Shown in pieces: positions 24,282 through 56,242 of a stretch of 64,000 bases of DNA. The stretch is from the NCBI GenBank assembly GCA_021414235.1, contig JAIOOV010000004.1, positions 473,591 to 537,590 on the forward strand, in the 5' to 3' direction. Below the pieces are notes generated by a model that did no database searches, was not told the origin of the DNA, and saw nothing but the letters and a program-made list of their open reading frames with translations. Position 1 is the stretch's first letter. Each line of letters begins with the position of its first letter. Both the position numbers and the translations under genes were made by a program. This stretch comes from Candidatus Parcubacteria bacterium (GTDB lineage: Bacteria > Patescibacteriota > Minisyncoccia > Phycocordibacterales > JAKFXT01).

Positions 24282-26123
24282 TTATGCCTCAGGGAATTCC
24301 TTGCGGCTCTCGCGAGCAGCCATGTCCATGACACGGGATACTGCGAGACGTGCGCCCAAGAGCTTCGAGCTGTAGCTCTCATCCCCTGCTCCGATGAGTG
24401 CCGTGATGGCGGACTCGAGCGTCTGGAGGCTCCAGCCGGCGGTCGCAGTAAGCGACTGCTCGTTGGCACCAATCTCACGCACAGTGCGGAAGCGGTGTAC
24501 CTTGTCGAGCTCGTAGGAAGCCGCCTTGAGGAACTCAGGGATGTTGTGACCCTGCGCATCGAGCATGTGGAGGAGCGCAGAACTCTTGGTGCTGTTCCCT
24601 GCTGCGAGCCAGCGTACGAACATCGGCACCATAGAGAGATAGGTGGAGAAGAGCATCTCGCGGACACGCGTTGCCGAGAGCGAGAGCCAAGAGTATTCCG
24701 GCTTCTCGTACCAGGCATGCGCCACTTCGGTGAGTTCAGAGAGAACATTCTGGGCCTGCTCTGCCTTACCATCCGCTGCAGAGAGGATGAGGGCAGCTGC
24801 ATCCTCGGAGAGGAGGATTTCCTTCTCACGAGCGTAGCTTACGAGCATCTCATAGATGCGAGTCTTCTCCTCATTGCTCATGCCGGTCGCAACCTTAGGT
24901 GCTGCAGGAGCCGCCTTGAGGGTGCGAATCTGGCTTACGAGATCAAGCGGTGCATCAGCTTCCTTGCGGAGAGCGAGTGCTGCCGGAGCTGCCACTACCT
25001 CAGGGGTAGCAACTGGCTCTGCAACCTCTTCAACAACAGGAAGCGAGACTTCCATCACCGAGCTTAGAGCGACAGTGCGCGGCAGCGGCGTGAACGGATT
25101 AAGGAGATCTGCATAAGGCTTGAGTGCAGCGCCCACGGAGAGAGCGTAGCGGGACATGTCATCCCCCATGGAAGCGAGAGGCTGGAATACCTGCATCGAG
25201 CGCGAGATACCACCGGCATAGACCATGCCGTAGGAGAACATCGCGGAGAGACCAAGAAGCCCGAAGAGGAAGAAATACGTGAAGAGGGTGTCGCCTACGC
25301 CGGTGTACGGGATGGAACCGAGGTTCACCGAGACGAAGGATGCGAGCGGAGAGCTGCCAGTCACGCGGGTGAGCTCGACGTTCGGCATCGTACCGCCGCC
25401 GCCGGTGGAGCTACCGCCACCAGAAGAACTGGAAGACGAGCTGCTACCACCGCCAGAGGAAGATCCTGGAGGAGGCGGAGGAGGTGGGGGCGGAGGAGGA
25501 GGCGGAGGCACTTCTATACCGCCAGAGGAAGAACCGGAAGAAGAACCCGGAGGAGGCGGAGGAGGTGGGGGCGGAGGAGGTACCTCTATACCACCAGAGG
25601 AAGAGCTAGGAGGTGGTGGTGGGGGCGGCGGAGGAGGCGGAGGGGAAGGAGGTTCGATGTTCGGACCCGCTTCTATAGGACCACCAGAGGAGGAACTACC
25701 TGTCTCGCCGCCGGAAGATGAGCCACCGCAGCCCTCGCAGCCACCCGAAGAGGAGCCCATACCATCGCTGGAGCCGCCACATCCTTCACAACCGCCAGAG
25801 GAAGAACCCATGCCGTCGCTAGAGCCACCACAACCCTCGCAGCCACCGGAAGAGGAGCCCATACCATCGCTGGAGCCGCCACATCCTTCACAACCGCCAG
25901 AGGAAGAACCCATGCCGTCGCTAGAGCCACCCTCGGCTCCGCCACCGTCGCCGCCACCATCCGAGGAGCCCATGCCGCCACCGTCGCCGCCTTCCTGAGC
26001 AAAGACGCTGGAAATGGAATTACCAGTAAAATTATTCGAAAGAGAAAAACCGACCACGAATGAGGCTATGGTGAGCACGAGGGCACTGCTGATGATTAGA
26101 TTTTCTTTAAGGAATTGGTTCAT
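24282..26123 (-). CDS. Repeat-rich membrane protein: signal/anchor, four tandem SSDGMGSSSGGCEGCGG repeats, three poly-proline runs (11-15 Pro), a Gly/Ser-rich stretch, a TM helix, and a 330-aa C-terminal domain of unknown function
   Basis: 613-aa ORF. The repeats and the CxxC (CEGC) motifs were read from the translation. N-terminal VFAQEGGDGGG... is paralogous to the small ORF at 55944..56156. Confidence 0.7.
   Translation of the reverse strand: MNQFLKENLIISSALVLTIASFVVGFSLSNNFTGNSISSVFAQEGGDGGGMGSSDGGGDGGGAEGGSSDGMGSSSGGCEGCGGSSDGMGSSSGGCEGCGGSSDGMGSSSGGCEGCGGSSDGMGSSSGGCEGCGGSSSGGETGSSSSGGPIEAGPNIEPPSPPPPPPPPPPPPSSSSGGIEVPPPPPPPPPPPGSSSGSSSGGIEVPPPPPPPPPPPPPPGSSSGGGSSSSSSSSGGGSSTGGGGTMPNVELTRVTGSSPLASFVSVNLGSIPYTGVGDTLFTYFFLFGLLGLSAMFSYGMVYAGGISRSMQVFQPLASMGDDMSRYALSVGAALKPYADLLNPFTPLPRTVALSSVMEVSLPVVEEVAEPVATPEVVAAPAALALRKEADAPLDLVSQIRTLKAAPAAPKVATGMSNEEKTRIYEMLVSYAREKEILLSEDAAALILSAADGKAEQAQNVLSELTEVAHAWYEKPEYSWLSLSATRVREMLFSTYLSMVPMFVRWLAAGNSTKSSALLHMLDAQGHNIPEFLKAASYELDKVHRFRTVREIGANEQSLTATAGWSLQTLESAITALIGAGDESYSSKLLGARLAVSRVMDMAARESRKEFPEA
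25455..25640. repeat. Roughly 190-nt homopurine (GGAGG/GGCGG-rich) tract on the plus strand with an internal direct repeat of about 66 nt. It encodes the poly-Pro runs on the minus strand.
   Basis: Read directly from sequence. Confidence 0.75.
25722..25930 (-). repeat. In-frame tandem DNA repeats (2 x ~102 nt, equal to 4 x 17-aa GGCEGCGG units) inside the 24282..26123 CDS
   Basis: Near-identical 102-nt units visible on the plus strand (ggagcccataccatcgctggagccgccacatccttcacaaccgccagaggaagaacccatgccgtcgctagagccacc...). Confidence 0.8.
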
Positions 26124-26273: not shown

Positions 26274-27473
26274 TCAGATCGTGCCGACTCGGAAGCTGAG
26301 CACCCCTCGGCCGGAGCCGGAGAGCACTTTCTCCCCGAGGTTGTCCTGCGCACGAATGCGCAAGGCTCCGGTGTTCTTGTCACCGTAGCCATCAGGCAGA
26401 CAGTCGCAGGCCTGAGGATACCCCGCCACGTAGGCGGGATTCTCCGACCACACCGCTGCGCCCATTCCCTTCCGACCAAGTGAAGGAGGGATGTAGAGCG
26501 CGACTTCGCCTGCGAACGGGAATTCGCCGAGGAAATCACCCTTGTCCCCTTCCTTCTTGATGAGCGTGAGGGTCGCAGTACCGCCCGAAGAGAGCGGCAC
26601 CTGGACCTTCATGCCGAGGGGTTTCCCTGCCGCGTTCGCCTCTTTAAGGGCGATGTGCATGATGACGTGCCGCGTATCGAGCGGCACGGTCTTACGCAGA
26701 TGGTCCGGGGAGAGGTTTCGAGAATCCTGCGCCTCGCACCAGAGCTTGTTGGCATCGCCGACCGGCTGGAAGGCCTGGAGGCAGAGACGGAAGTGGCCCC
26801 GCATCGAGGCGACGCAGGCGCCGGTCGCCGAAACTTGCAGCGGCGGAGACGCGACAACGGGCCTCTGCCCACGGGCATCCACCCGCCAGAAGTTTTTGCA
26901 CCCGTTGAACTGGCCGATGTACATGCCATCGATCAGGCAGACTTTGGTGCCCCGATCCGAATGACCTTCAGGGACGTTCCCGATGGCCACCCTTACATGC
27001 TCCTGGACCACATGTTCCTCTTTCTTGGTCCGAGGATTCTCCCGAGTGAAAGTGAGACGATCGAGCACGACGCCATTCGGCAGAACTGCGTCGGCACACT
27101 CGTTGTTGTTGATCATCCGCTTGAAGCGGATGCACTGACCGACGTTGAGGCCGAGCAATCGACAGTTGGTGTCGACGTCAGCCTTGTTGCCATTGGCGTG
27201 CATGGTCTGCCACGCCTTCCCCAACGCCGTAGAGACCGGCGCGCTGGGGAAAGCTTCAACAGGAACCATAGCGGTCACATGCTCCCCCGAGACCCCCGGG
27301 AGAGAAAGCTGACCCACGCTGACCGCCGAGCCGGAGCTCGCGCTCTGGCCGATGCCCTGCGGGGCGCAGGCTGCAAGCCCGAAGGCCAGCAGCACAACAA
27401 GAAGACTGTATACTTTCTTCACGACACCACCTCTCTTCTTGATATGGGATTCTGAACTTCTTACGACAAACAA
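26274..27473 (-). CDS. Hypothetical lipoprotein (lipobox LAAC)
   Basis: 399 aa. N-terminal KKVYSLLVVLLAFGLAAC signal with lipobox. Confidence 0.6.
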   Translation of the reverse strand: MFVVRSSESHIKKRGGVVKKVYSLLVVLLAFGLAACAPQGIGQSASSGSAVSVGQLSLPGVSGEHVTAMVPVEAFPSAPVSTALGKAWQTMHANGNKADVDTNCRLLGLNVGQCIRFKRMINNNECADAVLPNGVVLDRLTFTRENPRTKKEEHVVQEHVRVAIGNVPEGHSDRGTKVCLIDGMYIGQFNGCKNFWRVDARGQRPVVASPPLQVSATGACVASMRGHFRLCLQAFQPVGDANKLWCEAQDSRNLSPDHLRKTVPLDTRHVIMHIALKEANAAGKPLGMKVQVPLSSGGTATLTLIKKEGDKGDFLGEFPFAGEVALYIPPSLGRKGMGAAVWSENPAYVAGYPQACDCLPDGYGDKNTGALRIRAQDNLGEKVLSGSGRGVLSFRVGTI

Positions 27474-27522: not shown

Positions 27523-28179
27523 TCAGTTCTCGAACGGATAGCTCTTCACAAAATGCGCTGTGACTACGAAGCGCTCTTCTTTCGCTCCCCACACGTTACA
27601 AGTAGACAGGATGAGCTTCCCCTCCTTCTTCCCTATCTCCACAGTCTGATTCCCTGCGAGTACCTTCTCCACGGAATCCACTACATAGAGAAAGGTGGTA
27701 TTCGCCCCCGAGAGCTCGATCTCATCCCCGCGCTTCAGCTCCTTCAGCCGATTAAACACCTTGTAGGCCTGGTTGTGCACTACCGGAAGCCCAGAGCTGT
27801 GGCCGAACAAGAGGATGTTCTGATTGCTCCCCAGGAGCCCTGAGCCGGGATAGTGCACCGGGCCCTCCTGGAGGGCCTTCTCCAGCACCGTGTCGTCCTG
27901 GGTCGAAGGGCTCCGCACTGCGGTCGAGAGTTTGATTGCGGGGATACTCACGGCCCGTACTACGCCGAGTTCTGCTGAGATAGACGGAAGAGTAGCCACT
28001 TCCTTTCCGAGGATGAGCCCCCTCCAGAATTCCCGGAGACCTAAGGGAGCCAACCCGATGGCCGAGAGAGCGAAGGAGAGGAGAGCGAACACGACGAGCA
28101 GAAGGAGGAGAAAACGCCTACGCTGAGGCTTTTTATCTGTATCTTCATTCATCTGGTGCTCATTCTTAGCTTCCATGGC
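27523..28179 (-). CDS. Sortase-family transpeptidase
   Basis: N-terminal TM anchor, conserved His (LLFGHSSG), active-site LILSTC (TLXTC-type) and a downstream Arg. Track ORF extends to 28323, but MEAKNEH at 28179 gives the natural sortase architecture. Confidence 0.7.
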   Translation of the reverse strand, partial: AMEAKNEHQMNEDTDKKPQRRRFLLLLLVVFALLSFALSAIGLAPLGLREFWRGLILGKEVATLPSISAELGVVRAVSIPAIKLSTAVRSPSTQDDTVLEKALQEGPVHYPGSGLLGSNQNILLFGHSSGLPVVHNQAYKVFNRLKELKRGDEIELSGANTTFLYVVDSVEKVLAGNQTVEIGKKEGKLILSTCNVWGAKEERFVVTAHFVKSYPFEN

Positions 28180-28430
28180 TGTTATGTCAACGTTCGGCGT
28201 TAGACGCACATTGCTATTTTTTTTAGATAAAGTCAAGGGCTCTCTCGCGCCTCTTCCCACTTTTCTAAAAGTGGGAAGAGGCGCCCTTCTCTGGTACTTG
28301 CAGGGAGGACTCGGGATTGTCATACTCCGCCCATACCAACGTCCTTCCTGCTAAAGGCACTTGTACCCGCAGAGCTGTAGCTCAGGAATGACTTGACAGG
28401 AGCATAAAATTATAGTAGTTAGAACACATT

Positions 28431-49937: not shown

Positions 49938-50795
49938 TTAGATCTCCTCAAAAGCAGGATTGACCCGGCAATCCACCGTCTTCGAGGTATTAACTTCAGA
50001 ACCGTTGTAGCAACGTACTGTGTAGGTACTCGTCTCGGTGACATTCGGTACGGATACCGAACCGGATGTCCCTGTCTGGCTCACTCCTGGGCCCGTGACC
50101 GTGCAGGAAGTAGCATTCGTCGCTGACCAGGTGAAGCTGCAGGAAGCGCCTTTGTTGATCACGATGGAGGGAGCGGCAGGAACCGTGGTGATGGTGGGCG
50201 CCGTACAAGAGGATTCCGGCGGAGCCACGGTAGCGGAACACGCACCCGCACAGCTATACGTACCGTAGGTCACCGCGCCGCAGCTATTAGCGGCAGATGT
50301 ACAGACCTGTCCCTGGTTGGCAGAGCAATAAGAAGCTTGGTAGTAGCCCTGGGAGTAGTAGTAGCCTTGATAGTACCCCTGCGAGTAATAGTAAGGTTGG
50401 TAATACCCCTGAGAGTAGTAGTAGCCTTGGGAATAGTAGTAGCCTTCGTAATACCCCTGGTAGTAAGACTGGTAATAACTTTGATAATACGATTGATAGT
50501 ACCCTTGGTAGTAACCCTGGTAGTACCCCTGATAGTAGGATTGGTAGTAGCCTTGGTAATACCCCTCTGCATAAGAATCCCCCGAAGCCGGGAGTATGAC
50601 TCCTCCCTCCTCTCCATTCGGTGAGAGCGAGTTGTAATCAATCTCTGGAGACTGCGGACCAGAGCTCTTCTCCAAATACCCCAAACTTGCTAGAGAGATG
50701 ACGAGAAAGATTGCCACACTCGCAAAGGAAAGGAGCCTGCGCTCGCGGAGTAGGTTAGAAAATCTTTTATTTATTTCACGAAAAAAGTGCCTCAT
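49938..50795 (-). CDS. Tyr/Gln/Gly-rich repeat protein 1 (YYQGYYQS repeats) with N-terminal anchor and conserved Cys-rich C-terminal domain
   Basis: 285 aa. About 25 copies of (G/S)YYQ-type units, then the ASYCSANQGQVCTSAANSCGAVTYGTYSCAGACSATVAP domain ending CRVNPAFEEI. Confidence 0.7.
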   Translation of the reverse strand: MRHFFREINKRFSNLLRERRLLSFASVAIFLVISLASLGYLEKSSGPQSPEIDYNSLSPNGEEGGVILPASGDSYAEGYYQGYYQSYYQGYYQGYYQGYYQSYYQSYYQSYYQGYYEGYYYSQGYYYSQGYYQPYYYSQGYYQGYYYSQGYYQASYCSANQGQVCTSAANSCGAVTYGTYSCAGACSATVAPPESSCTAPTITTVPAAPSIVINKGASCSFTWSATNATSCTVTGPGVSQTGTSGSVSVPNVTETSTYTVRCYNGSEVNTSKTVDCRVNPAFEEI

Positions 50796-50857: not shown

Positions 50858-51775
50858 TTAGATTTCTTCAAAAGTCGGATTGACCTGGCAGTTCACCGTC
50901 TTTGTGGTATTCACCATGGAGCCATTGTAACAACGCACTTGGTAGCTTCTCGATTGCGTGATATCAGGGACAGACACTGAGCCCGAAAGACCAGTGGAAT
51001 TCACCCCAGGACCGGTCACGACGCAAGAAGTAGCATTAGCACTGCTCCAGCTAAAGCTGCAAGCATCGCCTCTATTGATGACGATTGTCGGAGAAGGAGG
51101 CGCAACAGTGATAACTGGGACGACGCAGGAAGATTCCGCAGGAGCCACGGTAGCGGAACACGCACCCGCACAGCTATACGTACCGTAGGTCACCGCGCCG
51201 CAGCTATTAGCGGCAGATGTACAGACCTGTCCCTGGTTGGCAGAGCAATAAGAAGCTTGGTAGTAACCTTGATAATAACCTTGATACGCCGCTTGATAGG
51301 CGGACTGGTAATAGCTCTGGTAGTAGGATTGATAAGCAGCCTCATATCCAGCTTGGTAATACCCTTCGTAATAAGGCTGATAGTAGCTCTCGTACGTAGA
51401 CTGATATTGGCTCTGGTAATACGCCTCGTAGGTCGACTGGTACTGGCTTTGATAGTAACCCTCGTACGTAGACTGATATTGGCTCTGGTAATACGCCTCG
51501 TAGGTCGACTGGTACTGGCTCTGGTAATAGCTTTGGTAAGCAGCTTCAAAATAAGAATCCCCCGAAGCCGGGAGTATGACTCCCCCCTCCTCACCATTCG
51601 GTGAGAGCGAGTTGTAATCAATCTCTGGAGACTGCGGACCGTTATCAATCGGCTGAAGGTAGCTCAAGGCGGAAATCACAGCCAAAACCAGAGCCAATAC
51701 CGCCAGAAAGAGCAACTTCCGATCACACAGCAAAGCGCCCATATTACGCCGCCATCTCTTAAGAAGGTACTTCAT
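50858..51775 (-). CDS. Tyr/Gln-rich repeat protein 2 (YYQSQYQSTYEA repeats), tandem paralog of 49938..50795
   Basis: 305 aa. Shares two exact or near-exact nucleotide blocks with its neighbour (50221-50345 = 51142-51266; 50572-50660 ~ 51552-51640). Confidence 0.7.
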   Translation of the reverse strand: MKYLLKRWRRNMGALLCDRKLLFLAVLALVLAVISALSYLQPIDNGPQSPEIDYNSLSPNGEEGGVILPASGDSYFEAAYQSYYQSQYQSTYEAYYQSQYQSTYEGYYQSQYQSTYEAYYQSQYQSTYESYYQPYYEGYYQAGYEAAYQSYYQSYYQSAYQAAYQGYYQGYYQASYCSANQGQVCTSAANSCGAVTYGTYSCAGACSATVAPAESSCVVPVITVAPPSPTIVINRGDACSFSWSSANATSCVVTGPGVNSTGLSGSVSVPDITQSRSYQVRCYNGSMVNTTKTVNCQVNPTFEEI

Positions 51776-51784
51776 CCTATTTTG

Positions 51785-52609
51785 TTACTGAATCGCACTT
51801 AAGTCTGCCCCAGAGAGGAGTAGAAGATTTTTCTCTACAGAGCGCAGAGAACCCGCAAGACCTTGTGGATGATATCGAGCGTCGTTCCCAGGGTACGCCC
51901 TACCCCACTCCTCTGGCGTCATGGCTTTGAAACCAGCAAGAGCTTTCTCCAGGGCACTACGAGCCTCTTCCCTCTCTCCGAGATTAAGGAGCGCAACACC
52001 AAGAGAGTTCTGAAGCCAAGGATTCTCCGGATGATAAGAAAGGGCCTTTTCTGCAACCGTAAGGACATCCTTATAGCGACCCTGCCGAAAATAGATCCAA
52101 CAGAGGTCATTCGCTCCCGCCCAGCTCTCCGGTTCCAATTCCAGATACCTAGCGAAGTCACCCTCTGCCTCCGAGAGATTATTCCTATATCCGTACACAA
52201 GCCCACGCATGTAATAAGCGTTGTGGATGGAAGAATCCAGCCGCAGGGTCTCGTTTATAGCCTCGATAGCTTTGCTATAACGCCCCTGAAAGAAATAAAC
52301 CCGGGAGAGACCGAAATGGATATATCCCGGCTCTGGATACCCTAAGTCGAGAGCCCTCTTATAAAGTTCCTCTGCCTTCTTTAGGTCATGAGCATTCTCT
52401 CCGAGATAAAAATTACCCGCGCGATAGGCTAAGCTAGCATCCTCCGGCGCAAGCGCGAGAGCTACGGCAGGCATATGTAGCCTCTCCATAAACACATGGG
52501 CCCACAAGGGTCGATGGAAATCGACATAGGAATAGAGGCTCTTCCAACTAAGAAGAGTCGTGAGAGCGAGGAGAAGACCAAGGAGGCAAAGAACCGCACG
52601 CAGGCGCAT
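51785..52609 (-). CDS. TPR-repeat protein with signal/anchor
   Basis: 274 aa, multiple TPR-like helices (AYRAGNFYLGENAHDLKKAEELYKRALDL...). Confidence 0.6.
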   Translation of the reverse strand: MRLRAVLCLLGLLLALTTLLSWKSLYSYVDFHRPLWAHVFMERLHMPAVALALAPEDASLAYRAGNFYLGENAHDLKKAEELYKRALDLGYPEPGYIHFGLSRVYFFQGRYSKAIEAINETLRLDSSIHNAYYMRGLVYGYRNNLSEAEGDFARYLELEPESWAGANDLCWIYFRQGRYKDVLTVAEKALSYHPENPWLQNSLGVALLNLGEREEARSALEKALAGFKAMTPEEWGRAYPGNDARYHPQGLAGSLRSVEKNLLLLSGADLSAIQ

Positions 52610-52652: not shown

Positions 52653-54119
52653 ATGAATACCCAGTATCAAAGAGAAGACCCGCGCAGACTTGAGGTTGCG
52701 ATCCGTACAAAAGATTTTGCTTCTCTCTATGTGAAATCTTACTGGAAACGAAGTTTCCTAGAAGCCCTCCTTGGGACCCTGGAGGAACGTCTCGGGATAG
52801 AAATCTTGACCAAAGTACCGGAGAATCTTCGTGATGTTCACCTGCTGATATTCAAGAACCTGACAATCATAGAAAAATTGAGGAGACAGGGAATATTAGA
52901 GAAGGTCGAAGTCCTTAATCCTCCACCAGATGAGCCCCCTCTATACCGCGTTCATACAAAGGGCCATCTTCGCGCCTCCGGTGCAAGCTTCCTTGATCCT
53001 GAAAAAGCCCTGTGGAGCGCGCTCGGGGAGTGCGTCGAACGCTCTCTATGGTCAGGCTCTTCGGAATGGTACGAAAAGAAGATCAAGGTCTCTTCGTATA
53101 AAGAGCTTCCTGGGGATAAGATAGACCCCCGCTCAATTACTGGTTTCTCCGAGGAACAGAAGAGCTTGGATCCGATGCTACAAGTGGATGAATCGACAGT
53201 TCTCGGCTGGGTACAAGCCAAAGAAAAAATCTCCGGAAAGATGATCTGGGTACCTCTCCAGCTTTTCAGCGCCGAATATTGCCAGAAGAGACAGAAGTCT
53301 CCTGAACGACCGGAAAACGTCGAGCCACTTCTCCGTTCCGCCGTAACCACAGGACTCGCGACTTCTTCACATAGCCACGAAGAAGCCGTCCTCTACGGGG
53401 CATTGGAAGCGATCGAACGCGATGCTTTCATGATCTGCTGGCTCAAACGCCTCTCGCCTCCTCGCATCGATATCAATCACCTCGCCGAACAAGACGATGA
53501 TCTGAAAAGCATTCTTGATTCCCTGGCTCGCTACCACCTCCGTGCAGAACTGCTTCTACTTCCGACTGATTTTCCTTTCCTGGTCATCGCAGCCGTTCTG
53601 CTCGATGAAAGCGGAAAGGGGCCGGCGTTTACTATGGGCGCAAAGGCGCATTGGGATATGAAAACCGCCATCCTTGGAGCCCTCTCTGAAGCCGCTAGCG
53701 TACGCTTTTCTCTTAAAACCGCATACGAAGCCCCTGTGGACATGAAGAAGGTCGGTCGCAAGGAGCGCTTGATCTATTGGGCAAAGGAGGAAAACACCCC
53801 GAAACGCAGCTTTCTTACACAGGGGGAAATAAGAAAGATCACTCTAGAAGAGAATAAGAGTGATACTGGCACAGAATCTCTCCGACTGTCGGAAGCCTTG
53901 AGAAATAAGAAATATCCATTGTATGAAGTCGAGATAAGTTCCGAAGCAAGCCGTAGAAGCGGTTTTCGTTCAGTCTGTGTGCATATCCCTGACCTGCAGC
54001 CGATGCATCTCGACGAGCGAGTTCCCGCTCTCGCCGGAAAACGCCTGGCAGAGATTCCCTCTCTCCTCGGATACGAACCCGCCAAAGAAATGAATCCTGA
54101 ACCCCACCCCTTTCCATGA
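52653..54119 (+). CDS. YcaO-domain protein, azoline-forming cyclodehydratase type (C-terminal PxPxP)
   Basis: GASFLDPEKALWSALGECVERSLW and HEEAVLYGALEAIERDAFMICWL (YcaO ATP-binding Glu motifs). Extreme C-terminus NPEPHPFP. Stop TGA overlaps the start of the next gene (ATGA). Confidence 0.8.
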   Translation: MNTQYQREDPRRLEVAIRTKDFASLYVKSYWKRSFLEALLGTLEERLGIEILTKVPENLRDVHLLIFKNLTIIEKLRRQGILEKVEVLNPPPDEPPLYRVHTKGHLRASGASFLDPEKALWSALGECVERSLWSGSSEWYEKKIKVSSYKELPGDKIDPRSITGFSEEQKSLDPMLQVDESTVLGWVQAKEKISGKMIWVPLQLFSAEYCQKRQKSPERPENVEPLLRSAVTTGLATSSHSHEEAVLYGALEAIERDAFMICWLKRLSPPRIDINHLAEQDDDLKSILDSLARYHLRAELLLLPTDFPFLVIAAVLLDESGKGPAFTMGAKAHWDMKTAILGALSEAASVRFSLKTAYEAPVDMKKVGRKERLIYWAKEENTPKRSFLTQGEIRKITLEENKSDTGTESLRLSEALRNKKYPLYEVEISSEASRRSGFRSVCVHIPDLQPMHLDERVPALAGKRLAEIPSLLGYEPAKEMNPEPHPFP

Positions 54120-54874
54120 ATAACCATTTCGCCAAGCGGTTCCATCATCAAGCCATCGCGAACTGGCGTCTACCCAAAACTCGCGATGCCAAGAATCCGA
54201 TCCCCAGGGAAGATATCTTATTCAAGACATACCCTCGCTCTGAAAACACGGCGCTCGCCGAGCCGCTTCCCCTCAGCCATACACTCGAGAAAACCCTCTC
54301 CGAGCGGAAGACGACGCGCTCCTTCGATCCAGTCTCCGCCGTCAGTTTCCAAGAACTCTCTTCCCTGCTCTTCTGGAGCGCCGGACTTAGAGAGAACCGT
54401 ACAGACCCACAACAGAGCAAACGGTTCTATCCATCCGCGGGAGAACGTTATCCGCTAGAGATATATATAGCTGCGCGCAACGTCGATGGCTTGCCTAAAG
54501 GCCTGTATCACTTCAATCTCCTCAAGAACTCTCTGGAGAAGATAGGTGGTGAGGAATACTGCGATAATTTTCAAAAAAACCTCGGGTACGAATGGTCTAG
54601 GGATACCGCAGTAGCCATCCTCATCACCGGAGTATGGGAGCGGACTTTCTCAAAATACGGGGATTTCGGATATCGGCTCATATGTACAGAAGCCGGACAT
54701 GTGGCGCAAAATCTACAGCTCATAGCCCAATCCCTTGGTCTGGACTATGCCTCTATCGCAGGGTTCAAAGAAAAAGAGATGGATACCCTCCTAAATCTGG
54801 ACTCGGATAAAGAATCATCTCTCTACCTGACCCTCATAGGAAAAGCTACACCTTCCACCCGAACGAACGCATGA
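54116..54874 (+). CDS. SagB-type (McbC-like) FMN-dependent dehydrogenase of the nitroreductase superfamily
   Basis: SERKTTRSFDPVSAVSFQELSSLLFWSAGL...YPSAGERYPLEIYI...ICTEAGHVAQNLQLIAQSLGL. Translationally coupled to the YcaO gene. Confidence 0.75.
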   Translation: MNNHFAKRFHHQAIANWRLPKTRDAKNPIPREDILFKTYPRSENTALAEPLPLSHTLEKTLSERKTTRSFDPVSAVSFQELSSLLFWSAGLRENRTDPQQSKRFYPSAGERYPLEIYIAARNVDGLPKGLYHFNLLKNSLEKIGGEEYCDNFQKNLGYEWSRDTAVAILITGVWERTFSKYGDFGYRLICTEAGHVAQNLQLIAQSLGLDYASIAGFKEKEMDTLLNLDSDKESSLYLTLIGKATPSTRTNA

Positions 54875-55940
54875 GTGCGGCGAACTCTTCATCTACCAGA
54901 GAAATACGTTCTACATTAAGCCGCGTCTGTACATCGGACAGAGCCTCTTTGCTTGCCAGGTACTTATAGAAACGCTCGTTGCGATACGCAGGATCAGAGA
55001 ACGGCGCAAGGAGGACGGATATCTCTCCCGCTTTTGACTTTCCATACTGTTGAGAAAGATACAGGGCGTATTGATACCCTGTCCAAATGCGCTGATCACG
55101 GTTACCCTCCGTCAGATTCCACGCCTCTTTATAGAGAGCCTCTGCTTCAGCTGCATGATCTTCGCCTGTGAGAGTAGCGATGCCGAGCAGGATAGCCTGT
55201 CGCGTGATGCGCGCGGAAAGCACGGAATTATCGAAGCCCAAGGTACGGGCTGCGATGAGTTCATCGTTGCCTATGCGTATCGCCTCGTGCACCTGGTTCC
55301 ACAGAGACTTAAGATTTTCTTCATCCGCGCTCGTACGAGCCTGCCTCACACTGAGCGCAAGGATCTCAGGGAAGGATTTATCAAAAGAAATACGGAAGAG
55401 AGAGACAGCCGTAGGATAAAAAGAGCTTGCATACTCCGAGAGTCGAGTATATGCCGCCTCAATATTCCCATTGGAGTTGAAGGCAGAGTACGGGGTCTTG
55501 TCGAAGACGTATTTCGAATATTCCGGATCTTTGTTATTAGCCAAGTAAAGCTCGCCCATAAGCTGGATAGACCAAGCGCGAATGATGTCCGCATAATTCT
55601 CATTGGCAGCCACCTCTCGGAGCGTAGCTATAGAACTCTGATATTCCTTAGCGAGTCCCTGAGCATACCCCACATTATATTTGATATACCCTTCTTGATT
55701 GAGATCCTGGGCATCAAGCAATGCCGCTTGGAAGAAGGGAATAGCTTTAGAGAATTCACGGGCCTTCATGTGCGCAAGACCTTTTTTGAAATCCGCATTC
55801 TGCTCCCTAACATACGTCACCGTATTCGGCTTCACAGAGGGTTCTTGCGATTGAGCATAAAGATAATAAATACTCCCCAAGAAGAGAACTAGGAGCAAGG
55901 CGCCGATAATAGTGCGGGATGTGAGATAAGAGCGAAGCAT
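54846..55940 (-). CDS. Membrane-anchored TPR-like or helical-repeat hypothetical protein
   Basis: 364 aa. N-terminal TM. Start codon is 3 nt downstream of the stop of the small Gly/Cys ORF. Confidence 0.5.
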   Translation of the reverse strand: MLRSYLTSRTIIGALLLVLFLGSIYYLYAQSQEPSVKPNTVTYVREQNADFKKGLAHMKAREFSKAIPFFQAALLDAQDLNQEGYIKYNVGYAQGLAKEYQSSIATLREVAANENYADIIRAWSIQLMGELYLANNKDPEYSKYVFDKTPYSAFNSNGNIEAAYTRLSEYASSFYPTAVSLFRISFDKSFPEILALSVRQARTSADEENLKSLWNQVHEAIRIGNDELIAARTLGFDNSVLSARITRQAILLGIATLTGEDHAAEAEALYKEAWNLTEGNRDQRIWTGYQYALYLSQQYGKSKAGEISVLLAPFSDPAYRNERFYKYLASKEALSDVQTRLNVERISLVDEEFAALMRSFGWKV

Positions 55941-55943
55941 GAT

Positions 55944-56156
55944 TTAGGAACCACCGCACCCCTCGCAACCACAGCCATCGGCGCTACCGCCGCCATCCCC
56001 TCCACCTGAACACTCACAATCCTTCCCGCCTCCCTGCGCAAGCACTGAGGAAATCTTCTGTTCGCTCCAGAAGGAAGCATCTCCATTCGACCTATCAAGC
56101 GCCGCATGAAACATGAAAGCGGCGCTTACCCCCGCCACGACGCCCAACCCCTTCAT
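55944..56156 (-). CDS. Small Gly/Ser/Cys-rich peptide (70 aa from ATG 56156, or 85 aa from GTG 56201). Candidate McbA-like TOMM precursor, or a metal-binding peptide.
   Basis: C-terminal tail AQGGGKDCECSGGGDGGGSADGCGCEGCGGS. Homologous to the N-terminal region of the 24282..26123 protein (FAQEGGDGGG...GGCEGCGG). Confidence 0.45.
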   Translation of the reverse strand: MKGLGVVAGVSAAFMFHAALDRSNGDASFWSEQKISSVLAQGGGKDCECSGGGDGGGSADGCGCEGCGGS

Positions 56157-56242
56157 AATTGTAGAGAAAAAGTTCTTCACGTATGCAATTAATATTAGCA
56201 CCCTGCTTCAAGAAGCTTTGTTGATAACTCCCCTTTAATGTA

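Follow-up and report, generated by a model that had tools for sequence, protein, structure and literature searches.

A conserved small gene beside a YcaO–SagB pair in Patescibacteria encodes a candidate azol(in)e peptide precursor with an export-like leader

Gene clusters for linear peptides that contain azol(in)es (LAPs) have been reported from bacteria of the Candidate Phyla Radiation (CPR): the accessible text of Sharrar et al. (2020, mBio; PMC7298704) describes 110 clusters called by antiSMASH in 93 genomes, including 51 of Parcubacteria, and proposes a small Ser/Cys-rich open reading frame (ORF) beside YcaO as the precursor, with one 84-aa example. Here, we describe a small ORF near a YcaO–SagB gene pair in 64,000 nt of a Candidatus Parcubacteria genome (contig JAIOOV010000004.1, positions 473,591 to 537,590; this whole stretch is the window, and coordinates refer to it unless one of the surveyed loci, L001 and onwards, is named). 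We consider it fairly probable (roughly 60%) that this ORF encodes the precursor of a YcaO/SagB-modified LAP, of the thiazole/oxazole-modified microcin (TOMM) type, with a long export sequence resembling a signal anchor as the leader. An earlier note on this DNA had put the ORF forward as a candidate precursor for the YcaO–SagB pair, and the proposal survived all refutations that could be tested computationally, as the linkage is conserved and the orthologues are intact.

As in the CPR clusters reported previously, YcaO adjoins a nitroreductase/SagB gene, in Parcubacteria and Microgenomates genomes (PMC7298704). The accessible text of that report holds no definition of a precursor family, no hydrophobic leader, no A-x-A junction and no obligatory tetratricopeptide repeat (TPR) partner (PMC7298704), and whereas the precursor proposed there sits beside YcaO, the peptide operon of the window's clade lies downstream of, and convergent with, the enzyme genes, not next to where YcaO begins. 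Other surveys in the literature merely counted YcaO clusters; our literature search found no description of such a leader, junction motif or TPR partner, and no experimental work.

Among characterized systems, McbA with McbBCD and the heterocycloanthracin/sonorensin family (TIGR03601) share with the window a Gly-rich core containing Cys and Ser, and a YcaO plus SagB/McbC-type dehydrogenase encoded alongside. The window differs from them by its hydrophobic export-like leader, its strongly acidic core, and its gene order and partners (TPR proteins), and it holds neither detectable homology nor an McbB/E1-like scaffold. The McbA-like or heterocycloanthracin-like architecture described in the earlier note was found to be a matter of composition: the ORF matched no Pfam or NCBIfam model, TIGR03601 included, and has no McbB/E1-like partner. 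Membership in either family was therefore rejected.

The cyanobactin heterocyclases LynD/TruD/PatD and MusD match the window YcaO best, by sequence profile as well as by fold, and align with it to the C-terminus. LynD and TruD differ in carrying a fused N-terminal E1-like/RiPP recognition element (RRE) region of ~400 aa (RiPPs being peptides made by the ribosome and modified after translation), where the window enzyme has a conserved region of ~110 aa before its YcaO domain, and their precursors are unrelated. Streptolysin S-type systems (SagA/SagBCD) likewise combine a small Cys-rich precursor with SagB and SagD (YcaO) homologues; the window locus, however, is without SagC, a CaaX-type protease or an ABC exporter, and its core is Gly/Asp-rich in place of Cys/Thr/Ser runs. 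By analogy, a contact-dependent, membrane-active product of an episymbiont might be modelled on the streptolysin S type. Closest in leader type are the bufferins, Cys-containing RiPPs with Sec signal peptides that are modified by MNIO/DUF692 enzymes, with heterocycles formed from Cys (PMC11626156). In these, too, a Sec-type N-terminal signal replaces the classical leader, the Cys heterocycles are made in the cytoplasm prior to export, and the copper-binding product is extracytoplasmic; they differ by their MNIO and DUF2063 enzymes, by being folded small proteins, and by a normal short signal, the junction in the window lying ~20 aa past the helix (PMC11626156).

The small ORF, its parts and the adjacent genes are as follows.

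55944..56201, minus strand: small ORF; stop codon at 55944-55946, frame bounded upstream by an in-frame TGA at 56208-56210
56097..56147, minus strand: N-terminal hydrophobic, signal-anchor-like helix; aa 4-20 of the 70-aa form, Kyte-Doolittle 17-aa mean 1.88
56034..56045, minus strand: predicted junction V-L-A|Q (the bar marks the predicted cut after A), then GGGKD; aa 38-41 of the 70-aa form
55947..56036, minus strand: putative core of 30 aa, QGGGKDCECSGGGDGGGSADGCGCEGCGGS; residues 41-70, after A40|Q41
52653..54119, plus strand: YcaO cyclodehydratase-type enzyme (Pfam YcaO, 1.6e-48; C-terminus ...EPHPFP)
54116..54874, plus strand: SagB-type flavin mononucleotide (FMN) dehydrogenase (scores 140.9 bits with TIGR03605, whose cut-off is 78.4, and matches Pfam Nitroreductase at 1.6e-18)
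54846..55940, minus strand: gene for a 364-aa partner protein, 3 nt after the small-ORF stop (NCBI hypothetical protein K8Q93_03790)

Three in-frame start codons are available to the small ORF, namely GTG at 56201 (85 aa), GTG at 56180 (78 aa) and ATG at 56156 (70 aa). No convincing Shine–Dalgarno (SD) sequence precedes any of the three, so this signal could not be used to choose between them. The length of 70-85 aa, the uncertain start and the poor SD context reported previously thus hold, with GTG 56180 as an additional candidate. ATG 56156, giving the 70-aa form, is the most likely start, because the orthologous ORFs described below begin MK.. close to the hydrophobic helix. The translation ends in VLAQGGGKDCECSGGGDGGGSADGCGCEGCGGS at the stop codon, and its 30-aa tail comprises 14 Gly, 5 Cys and 3 Ser with a net charge of -4. 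The five Cys (residues 62, 64, 77, 79 and 82 in the numbering of the 85-aa form) replace a previous count of six, and three of them have Gly just before. Of the features that define a Sec signal peptide, a basic N-terminus, a hydrophobic helix and V-L-A|Q are present; the junction resembles a –3/–1 signal-peptidase-type site, but is positioned ~20 aa past the helix, as compared to 3-7 residues in classical signal peptidase I signals. Across all six frames of the window, only three ORFs passed a Gly/Cys-rich composition filter, two of them being the small ORF itself and the gene for a 613-aa protein (see below). A promoter and terminator scan yielded nothing useful for the minus strand.

Sequence searches with the small ORF as query remained empty: there was no match to Pfam or NCBIfam (including TIGR03601) at E ≤ 0.01, nothing at E ≤ 1 in a word-seeded search of 5.8 billion proteins, and 0 matches in a full HMMER search of 1.84 billion representative proteins. 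Since the ORF did not even find itself in these protein collections, it is absent from public annotation, and, with single-sequence searches empty, the peptide could be traced only through synteny. As for its neighbors, public annotation gives YcaO as 462 aa (488 aa in the longest ORF) and the partner as 350 aa (364 aa), with the small ORF not annotated; both the window YcaO and the 364-aa protein have exact counterparts at NCBI, under K8Q93_ locus tags.

Contigs whose YcaO is 54-61% identical to that of the window (L001-L003, L009) display the same gene order. An intact orthologue of the small ORF, devoid of frameshifts, is present at L001/L002, L003, L009/L091 and L090, and in part at L089, which answers the question raised in the earlier note of whether relatives carry such an ORF beside YcaO/SagB:

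L001/L002 (13275-13511 in L001): tail ..VSSVHAQGGGKDCDSCGGSEGSGGSEGCGGDGACGCP
L003 (4616-4855): tail ..VPEVFAQGSKDVDPGSDAGCDAGCDGCSDGCGP
L009/L091 (3810-4091 in L009): tail ..NIALAQGSKDLDPGSS...GCSDGCGP
L090 (569-880): tail ..VPDVYAQGSKDLDPACSGGGDGSGGGGCSDGSSGP
L089 (fragment at the contig end): tail ..DSAGGGCACGCDSSTGGADSCK

All share one build, which consists of a hydrophobic N-terminal helix, a spacer of ~20 aa, a V/A-x-A|Q-G junction and an acidic Gly/Ser/Asp/Cys tail; outside these conserved features the orthologous peptides drift, with 31-43% identity. Each of these AQG-type orthologues lies immediately upstream of a TPR-like gene of the 364-aa family, at a distance of 3 nt in the window (as noted previously for the co-directional membrane protein gene 54846..55940) and L003, ~6 nt in L090 and ~20 nt in L089, and with an overlap in L001 and L009. 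In five loci the peptide operon is convergent with SagB and YcaO. In L001, the gene caller ran the partner gene over the small ORF. A metagenome scan with an alignment of the partner protein returned two loci. Judged by this conservation of build and context, the small ORF is a real, conserved and unannotated gene.

In the window, YcaO and SagB are adjacent and convergent with the small operon, overlapping its end by 29 nt; the small ORF lies 1,070 nt from the SagB end, and there is no other small Cys/Ser/Thr-rich ORF near the YcaO gene. A profile of 29 YcaO relatives matches LynD/TruD/MusD at ~1e-20, aligned through to the C-termini, and the AlphaFold2 (AF2) model of the enzyme (pLDDT 90) has LynD as its top Foldseek match (1.5e-23), with resemblance also to MusD and to thioamide-forming archaeal YcaOs. 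In the YcaO family alignment, the P-H-P-F-P at the C-terminus varies little if at all. Dunbar et al. 2014 are said to have found a PxPxP C-terminus characteristic of azoline-forming (cyclodehydratase) YcaOs. By its domain, C-terminal motif and nearest relatives, the window YcaO is thus predicted to be of the azole-forming cyclodehydratase type and LynD-like, and SagB, scoring above the TIGR03605 cut-off, is predicted to be a peptide dehydrogenase of the SagB family. SagB occurs in the window as well as in 79 of 86 loci. None of the proteins from the window or the loci that were compared with Pfam or NCBIfam matched TfuA, although no search was aimed at TfuA.

Scanning GTDB species genomes with a YcaO alignment retrieved 80 loci, mostly from Patescibacteria; the alignment was needed as query, as a scan of genome contigs with a single YcaO sequence returned no loci. 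Peptides related to that of the window adjoin YcaO in ~30 more distant loci from several Patescibacteria classes. Many YcaO loci harbor a small ORF of 73-160 aa beside YcaO, typically divergent and 4-200 nt away, whose product has a basic N-terminus (often MVAIQK.. or MAIIKK..), a transmembrane (TM) helix, a spacer, an A-x-A|D ('AHADAP') junction and a Cys/Gly/Ser/Asp-rich tail, e.g. ..ARADAPGSCSSCSSCTSDGCSDGGCGGC.. in L026. At L072 (Nealsonbacteria), the peptide, ..VVFAQGGECDCDCYC.., is encoded just downstream of YcaO-SagB. In 35 non-redundant loci with the closest YcaOs, we applied a filter based on composition alone (a TM helix plus a Gly/Cys-rich tail, ≤160 aa): an ORF passing it was found within 4 kb of YcaO in 21 of the 35, and none in 258 kb farther out. 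A hidden Markov model (HMM) of the leaders, together with inspection, revealed variant forms in ~10 further loci, i.e. most of the remainder of the 35.

The hydrophobic helix is present in all relatives, with hydropathy means of 1.6-3.1. Across 38 family members, the helix is separated from the junction by a median of 22 aa (range 9-37). Position –1 of the junction is A in 38 of 38, by construction of the regular-expression scan; position –3 is A or V in 31 of 38 by an automatic first-match scan that mis-picked ~7 sites, and where it did so, the true junction as read by eye has A, V or T in position –3. The +1 position is D or Q. The relatives' cores contain 2-22 Cys in the family tabulation. 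An HMM built from AHAD-type leaders did not detect the AQG-type peptide of the window. An hhalign comparison of the two leader types places AQ over AD, the junctions being in register, at a probability of 92.6% (E 4.5e-7), albeit hydrophobic low-complexity profiles can inflate such scores. Synteny, shared architecture and the hhalign result together suggest that AQG- and AHAD-type peptides are related.

Members of the same YcaO clade also occur outside CPR (L036, L038, L043, L054, L058, L067, L069). In these loci, an upstream ORF in the same direction encodes a Cys-rich core behind a leader of the ordinary kind; two of the precursors weakly match the heterocycloanthracin model TIGR03601 (E ~0.015, below cut-off), and one cluster includes an M16 peptidase. 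No E1-like partner was present in L036 and L038, the two non-CPR loci inspected. Hence, the YcaO clade is tied to TOMM-type clusters of textbook form and seems scaffold-independent. At three loci of Saccharibacteria (L025 7866-10726, L035 7896-10705 and L068 25-2812), the order is YcaO, peptide, papain-like/TPR partner and TPR gene, with no SagB; the cores of these three contain 0, 0 and 1 Cys, respectively, and end in Tyr. The coincidence of SagB loss and Cys-poor cores is suggestive, with the three loci not being phylogenetically independent.

The peptide gene is always followed by the gene for a TM-anchored protein of ~380 aa, which belongs either to the TPR-like family of the window or to a papain-like plus TPR family. 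The 364-aa partner itself consists of one N-terminal TM helix and an all-alpha TPR-like solenoid (AF2 model, pLDDT 75, from a shallow alignment because a search with the protein gave three proteins only); its fold matches are generic, weak TPR hits (E > 1e-3, TM-score ~0.3), and neither it nor the 613-aa protein is covered by a Pfam or NCBIfam model. A gene of the 364-aa family follows the peptide gene in all loci of the AQG clade as well as in L007, L029, L031 and L037. The alternative partner family (L004 6430-8076, L006 1101-2228, L013 12238-13395 and 15 other loci) combines a TM anchor, a weak Peptidase_C70 match (E ~0.007) and TPR repeats. It may be a pseudo-peptidase that binds the peptide, as Ser/Thr appears at the expected position of the catalytic Cys. 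In the window, a further TPR gene belongs to the cluster:

51785..52609, minus strand: 274-aa TPR protein with an N-terminal signal-like helix (Pfam TPR_2, 2e-22), with homologues in 32 YcaO loci

Adjoining this gene are two genes for TM-anchored proteins (49938-50795 and 50858-51775, both minus strand). Each of the two proteins carries long repeats of Tyr/Gln/Ser (YYQGYYQS...) and a stretch rich in Cys, has an Ig-like domain at its C-terminal end and terminates in NP[AT]FEEI, whereas relatives from other YcaO loci end in PEFEEF. Noted in this connection were L001 7242-9136, L004 3293-4021, L019 6746-7588 and L050 7590-7922. In L019 and L050, an AHAD leader is followed by similar Tyr/Ser/Gln repeats, which is why the Tyr-rich repeats may constitute a second type of 'core' of the same system. 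Elsewhere in Patescibacteria, a gene for a PQQ-like/BamB-like beta-propeller directly follows SagB in 18 loci (L007 12218-13843 and 17 others); it is absent from the window's clade. The divergent intergenic region upstream of the small ORF contains a perfect sigma-70 consensus (TTGACA, 17 nt, TATAAT; 56243-56271, plus strand) that faces the ORF 56310-56912, whose 200-aa product starts with a signal-like segment and matches no family; no comparable sigma-70 site was found for the strand of the small ORF.

The leader and core of the small ORF recur at a second position in the window:

25872..26123, minus strand: leader, junction and Gly/Cys module paralogous to those of the small ORF, opening the 613-aa protein encoded at 24282..26123

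In agreement with the previous observation that this protein opens with the same module, its N-terminus consists of a TM helix, ISSVFAQEGG, and then four SSDGMGSSSGGCEGCGG repeats (..GGCEGCGGS). An unfiltered tblastn search connected the small ORF to the 613-aa gene at E 5e-8, and the DNA match spans just 22 nt; the module of the 613-aa protein is therefore an old paralogue, not a recent duplication. Upstream on the same strand, a sortase gene (27523-28323, minus strand; Pfam Sortase, 2.3e-19) is followed by a 399-aa ORF (26274-27473, minus strand) and then by the 613-aa gene, whose product has no obvious C-terminal LPXTG signal. In three other loci, a Hint/intein-type domain follows the leader and a Gly/Cys-rich or Tyr-rich segment (L016 2307-3125, L020 7065-7742 and L019 6746-7588). 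Pfam Hom_end_hint matched at 3e-10 in L016 and 8e-8 in L020, while the domain in L019 was recognized by eye only. The Hint domain could cleave itself off at the C-terminal end of the low-complexity segment.

The small ORF shares with known LAP precursors a conserved linkage to YcaO and an FMN dehydrogenase and a putative core rich in heterocyclizable residues. Our reading of it as the precursor of an export-leader LAP is based on the conserved YcaO–SagB linkage, the shared architecture, the link between leader types seen by hhalign, the azole-type enzymes and the precursors of the non-CPR clusters. For Sec-type signals on RiPP precursors that bear heterocycles, the bufferins provide a precedent (PMC11626156). 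The earlier note had treated a signal-peptide-like module and a precursor as alternatives; the family-wide pattern of a basic N-terminus, a TM helix and a junction before the core suggests that both hold. From this arrangement, we infer the following sequence of events. Residues 1-40 would form the leader (short basic N-terminus, hydrophobic helix, spacer of ~20 aa and V-x-A|Q junction), which would double as a signal for export or membrane insertion, and residues 41-70 the core, acidic, Gly/Ser/Asp-rich and with 5 Cys. The cytoplasmic, ATP-dependent YcaO would cyclodehydrate Cys (possibly also Ser) to azolines, and SagB would oxidize these to azoles. With the N-terminal helix guiding it, the modified tail would next cross the membrane, and the A-x-A-type junction might be cut by a signal-peptidase-like activity, or else the peptide might stay anchored. 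Outside the cell, the peptide would be bound or handled by the TM-anchored TPR-like protein that is co-translated with it and by the TPR protein that is secreted; the peptide may act as a toxin, metal binder or surface factor.

Several observations weigh against this reading. The window leader resembles a signal anchor rather than a recognition leader, and no RRE, E1-like or Ocin-ThiF-like partner was found among the neighbors tested in the window and a syntenic locus. The window YcaO scores 198.7 bits against TIGR03604 (SagD family), below the curated cut-off of 219.25. The cores in L009 and L090 have only 2 Cys, and that of a second copy in L037 has none. At L089 (1-3267), in a contig of only 4 kb, the place after the peptide fragment and 364-family partner that SagB/YcaO take elsewhere is occupied by DsbA-like (Thioredoxin_4), rhodanese and TPR genes. 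The leader-plus-low-complexity module also heads large proteins, namely the 613-aa protein 28 kb away, proteins of 263-299 aa in L004/L021 and the Hint fusions of L016/L019/L020, and thus may be a general export module. Moreover, the loci were ascertained through YcaO. The chief alternative, to which we give clearly less credence, takes up much of this: the gene would encode an exported or anchored Cys/Asp/Gly-rich peptide that is not modified by YcaO and binds metals or acts in redox reactions via thiols, disulfides and carboxylates, its leader and junction serving as a secretion signal that is specific to the lineage and also borne by larger surface proteins, and YcaO/SagB would act on another substrate or be linked for regulatory reasons. 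The signal-anchor-like N-terminus, the family-wide A/V-x-A junction (with the –1 residue fixed by the scan, as stated above), the fusion of the module to large extracytoplasmic proteins and Hint domains, the DsbA-like and rhodanese genes after the partner gene of L089, the Cys-free cores at some loci and the TM-anchored or secreted nature of the TPR partners all fit such a peptide. However, its gene is tight to YcaO (often <200 nt) in ~30 loci and was not found in the 258 kb of farther flanks, no alternative substrate ORF was seen near YcaO, non-CPR relatives of the enzyme have textbook precursors with similar cores, and SagB loss coincides with Cys-poor cores.

The peptide might also be a YcaO substrate but subject to other chemistry or part of a wider substrate range, with azolines as the end product, another type of amide activation, or tails of surface proteins (e.g. 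the 613-aa protein) modified as well. This we regard as unlikely. Leader–core modules on proteins of 225-613 aa, some encoded beside YcaO (L004 9052-9843, L020 7065-7742, L021), would agree with it, as would the retention of YcaO with Ser/Thr-only cores in SagB-less loci and the fold likeness of the enzyme to MusD and thioamide-forming archaeal YcaOs; yet SagB accompanies YcaO in the window and nearly all surveyed loci (79/86), the PxPxP C-terminus is typical of cyclodehydratases, and TfuA remained unmatched in general Pfam/NCBIfam scans, with no search aimed at it. Finally, the missing SD, uncertain start, lack of public gene annotation and empty sequence searches could be taken as signs of a spurious ORF, and the earlier note had raised the prospect of a degraded fragment of a 24282-type gene. 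However, at least five diverged genomes retain both the intact frame and the architecture, each with the same downstream gene coupled, for instance by 3 nt in the window or an overlap in L001, and the DNA similarity to the 613-aa gene amounts to 22 nt, no more. With frame, architecture and downstream coupling conserved, a spurious ORF and a decayed fragment are both ruled out for practical purposes. The preferred reading remains that of a modified precursor with an export leader.

CPR bacteria (Patescibacteria) have tiny genomes with very few biosynthetic clusters, and a cluster kept across many of their classes therefore likely matters for the host-dependent lifestyle. If the peptide is modified, it represents a precursor family that was missed by homology searches and gene callers alike, a YcaO at work in the absence of any RRE partner, with an export signal serving as the leader of its substrate, and a concrete core of 30 aa that could be synthesized. 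More tentatively, and with some doubt, the system might form a lineage-wide RiPP class of Patescibacteria, 'export-leader LAPs', in which partner-less YcaO/SagB enzymes would install azol(in)es on acidic low-complexity tails joined to a long signal-anchor leader by an invariant A-x-A|D/Q junction, in small peptides as well as at the N-termini of full-size surface proteins. If so, Hint fusions could release the modified segment by themselves, dedicated partners anchored in the membrane (TPR, or papain-like plus TPR) would deal with the products extracellularly, and these products would serve episymbiosis, e.g. in the role of a cytolysin directed at the host, a scavenger of metals or a component of the surface matrix. 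Even if the peptide is unmodified, an export signal for surface peptides of low complexity, specific to this lineage, would be defined by its conserved leader and junction.

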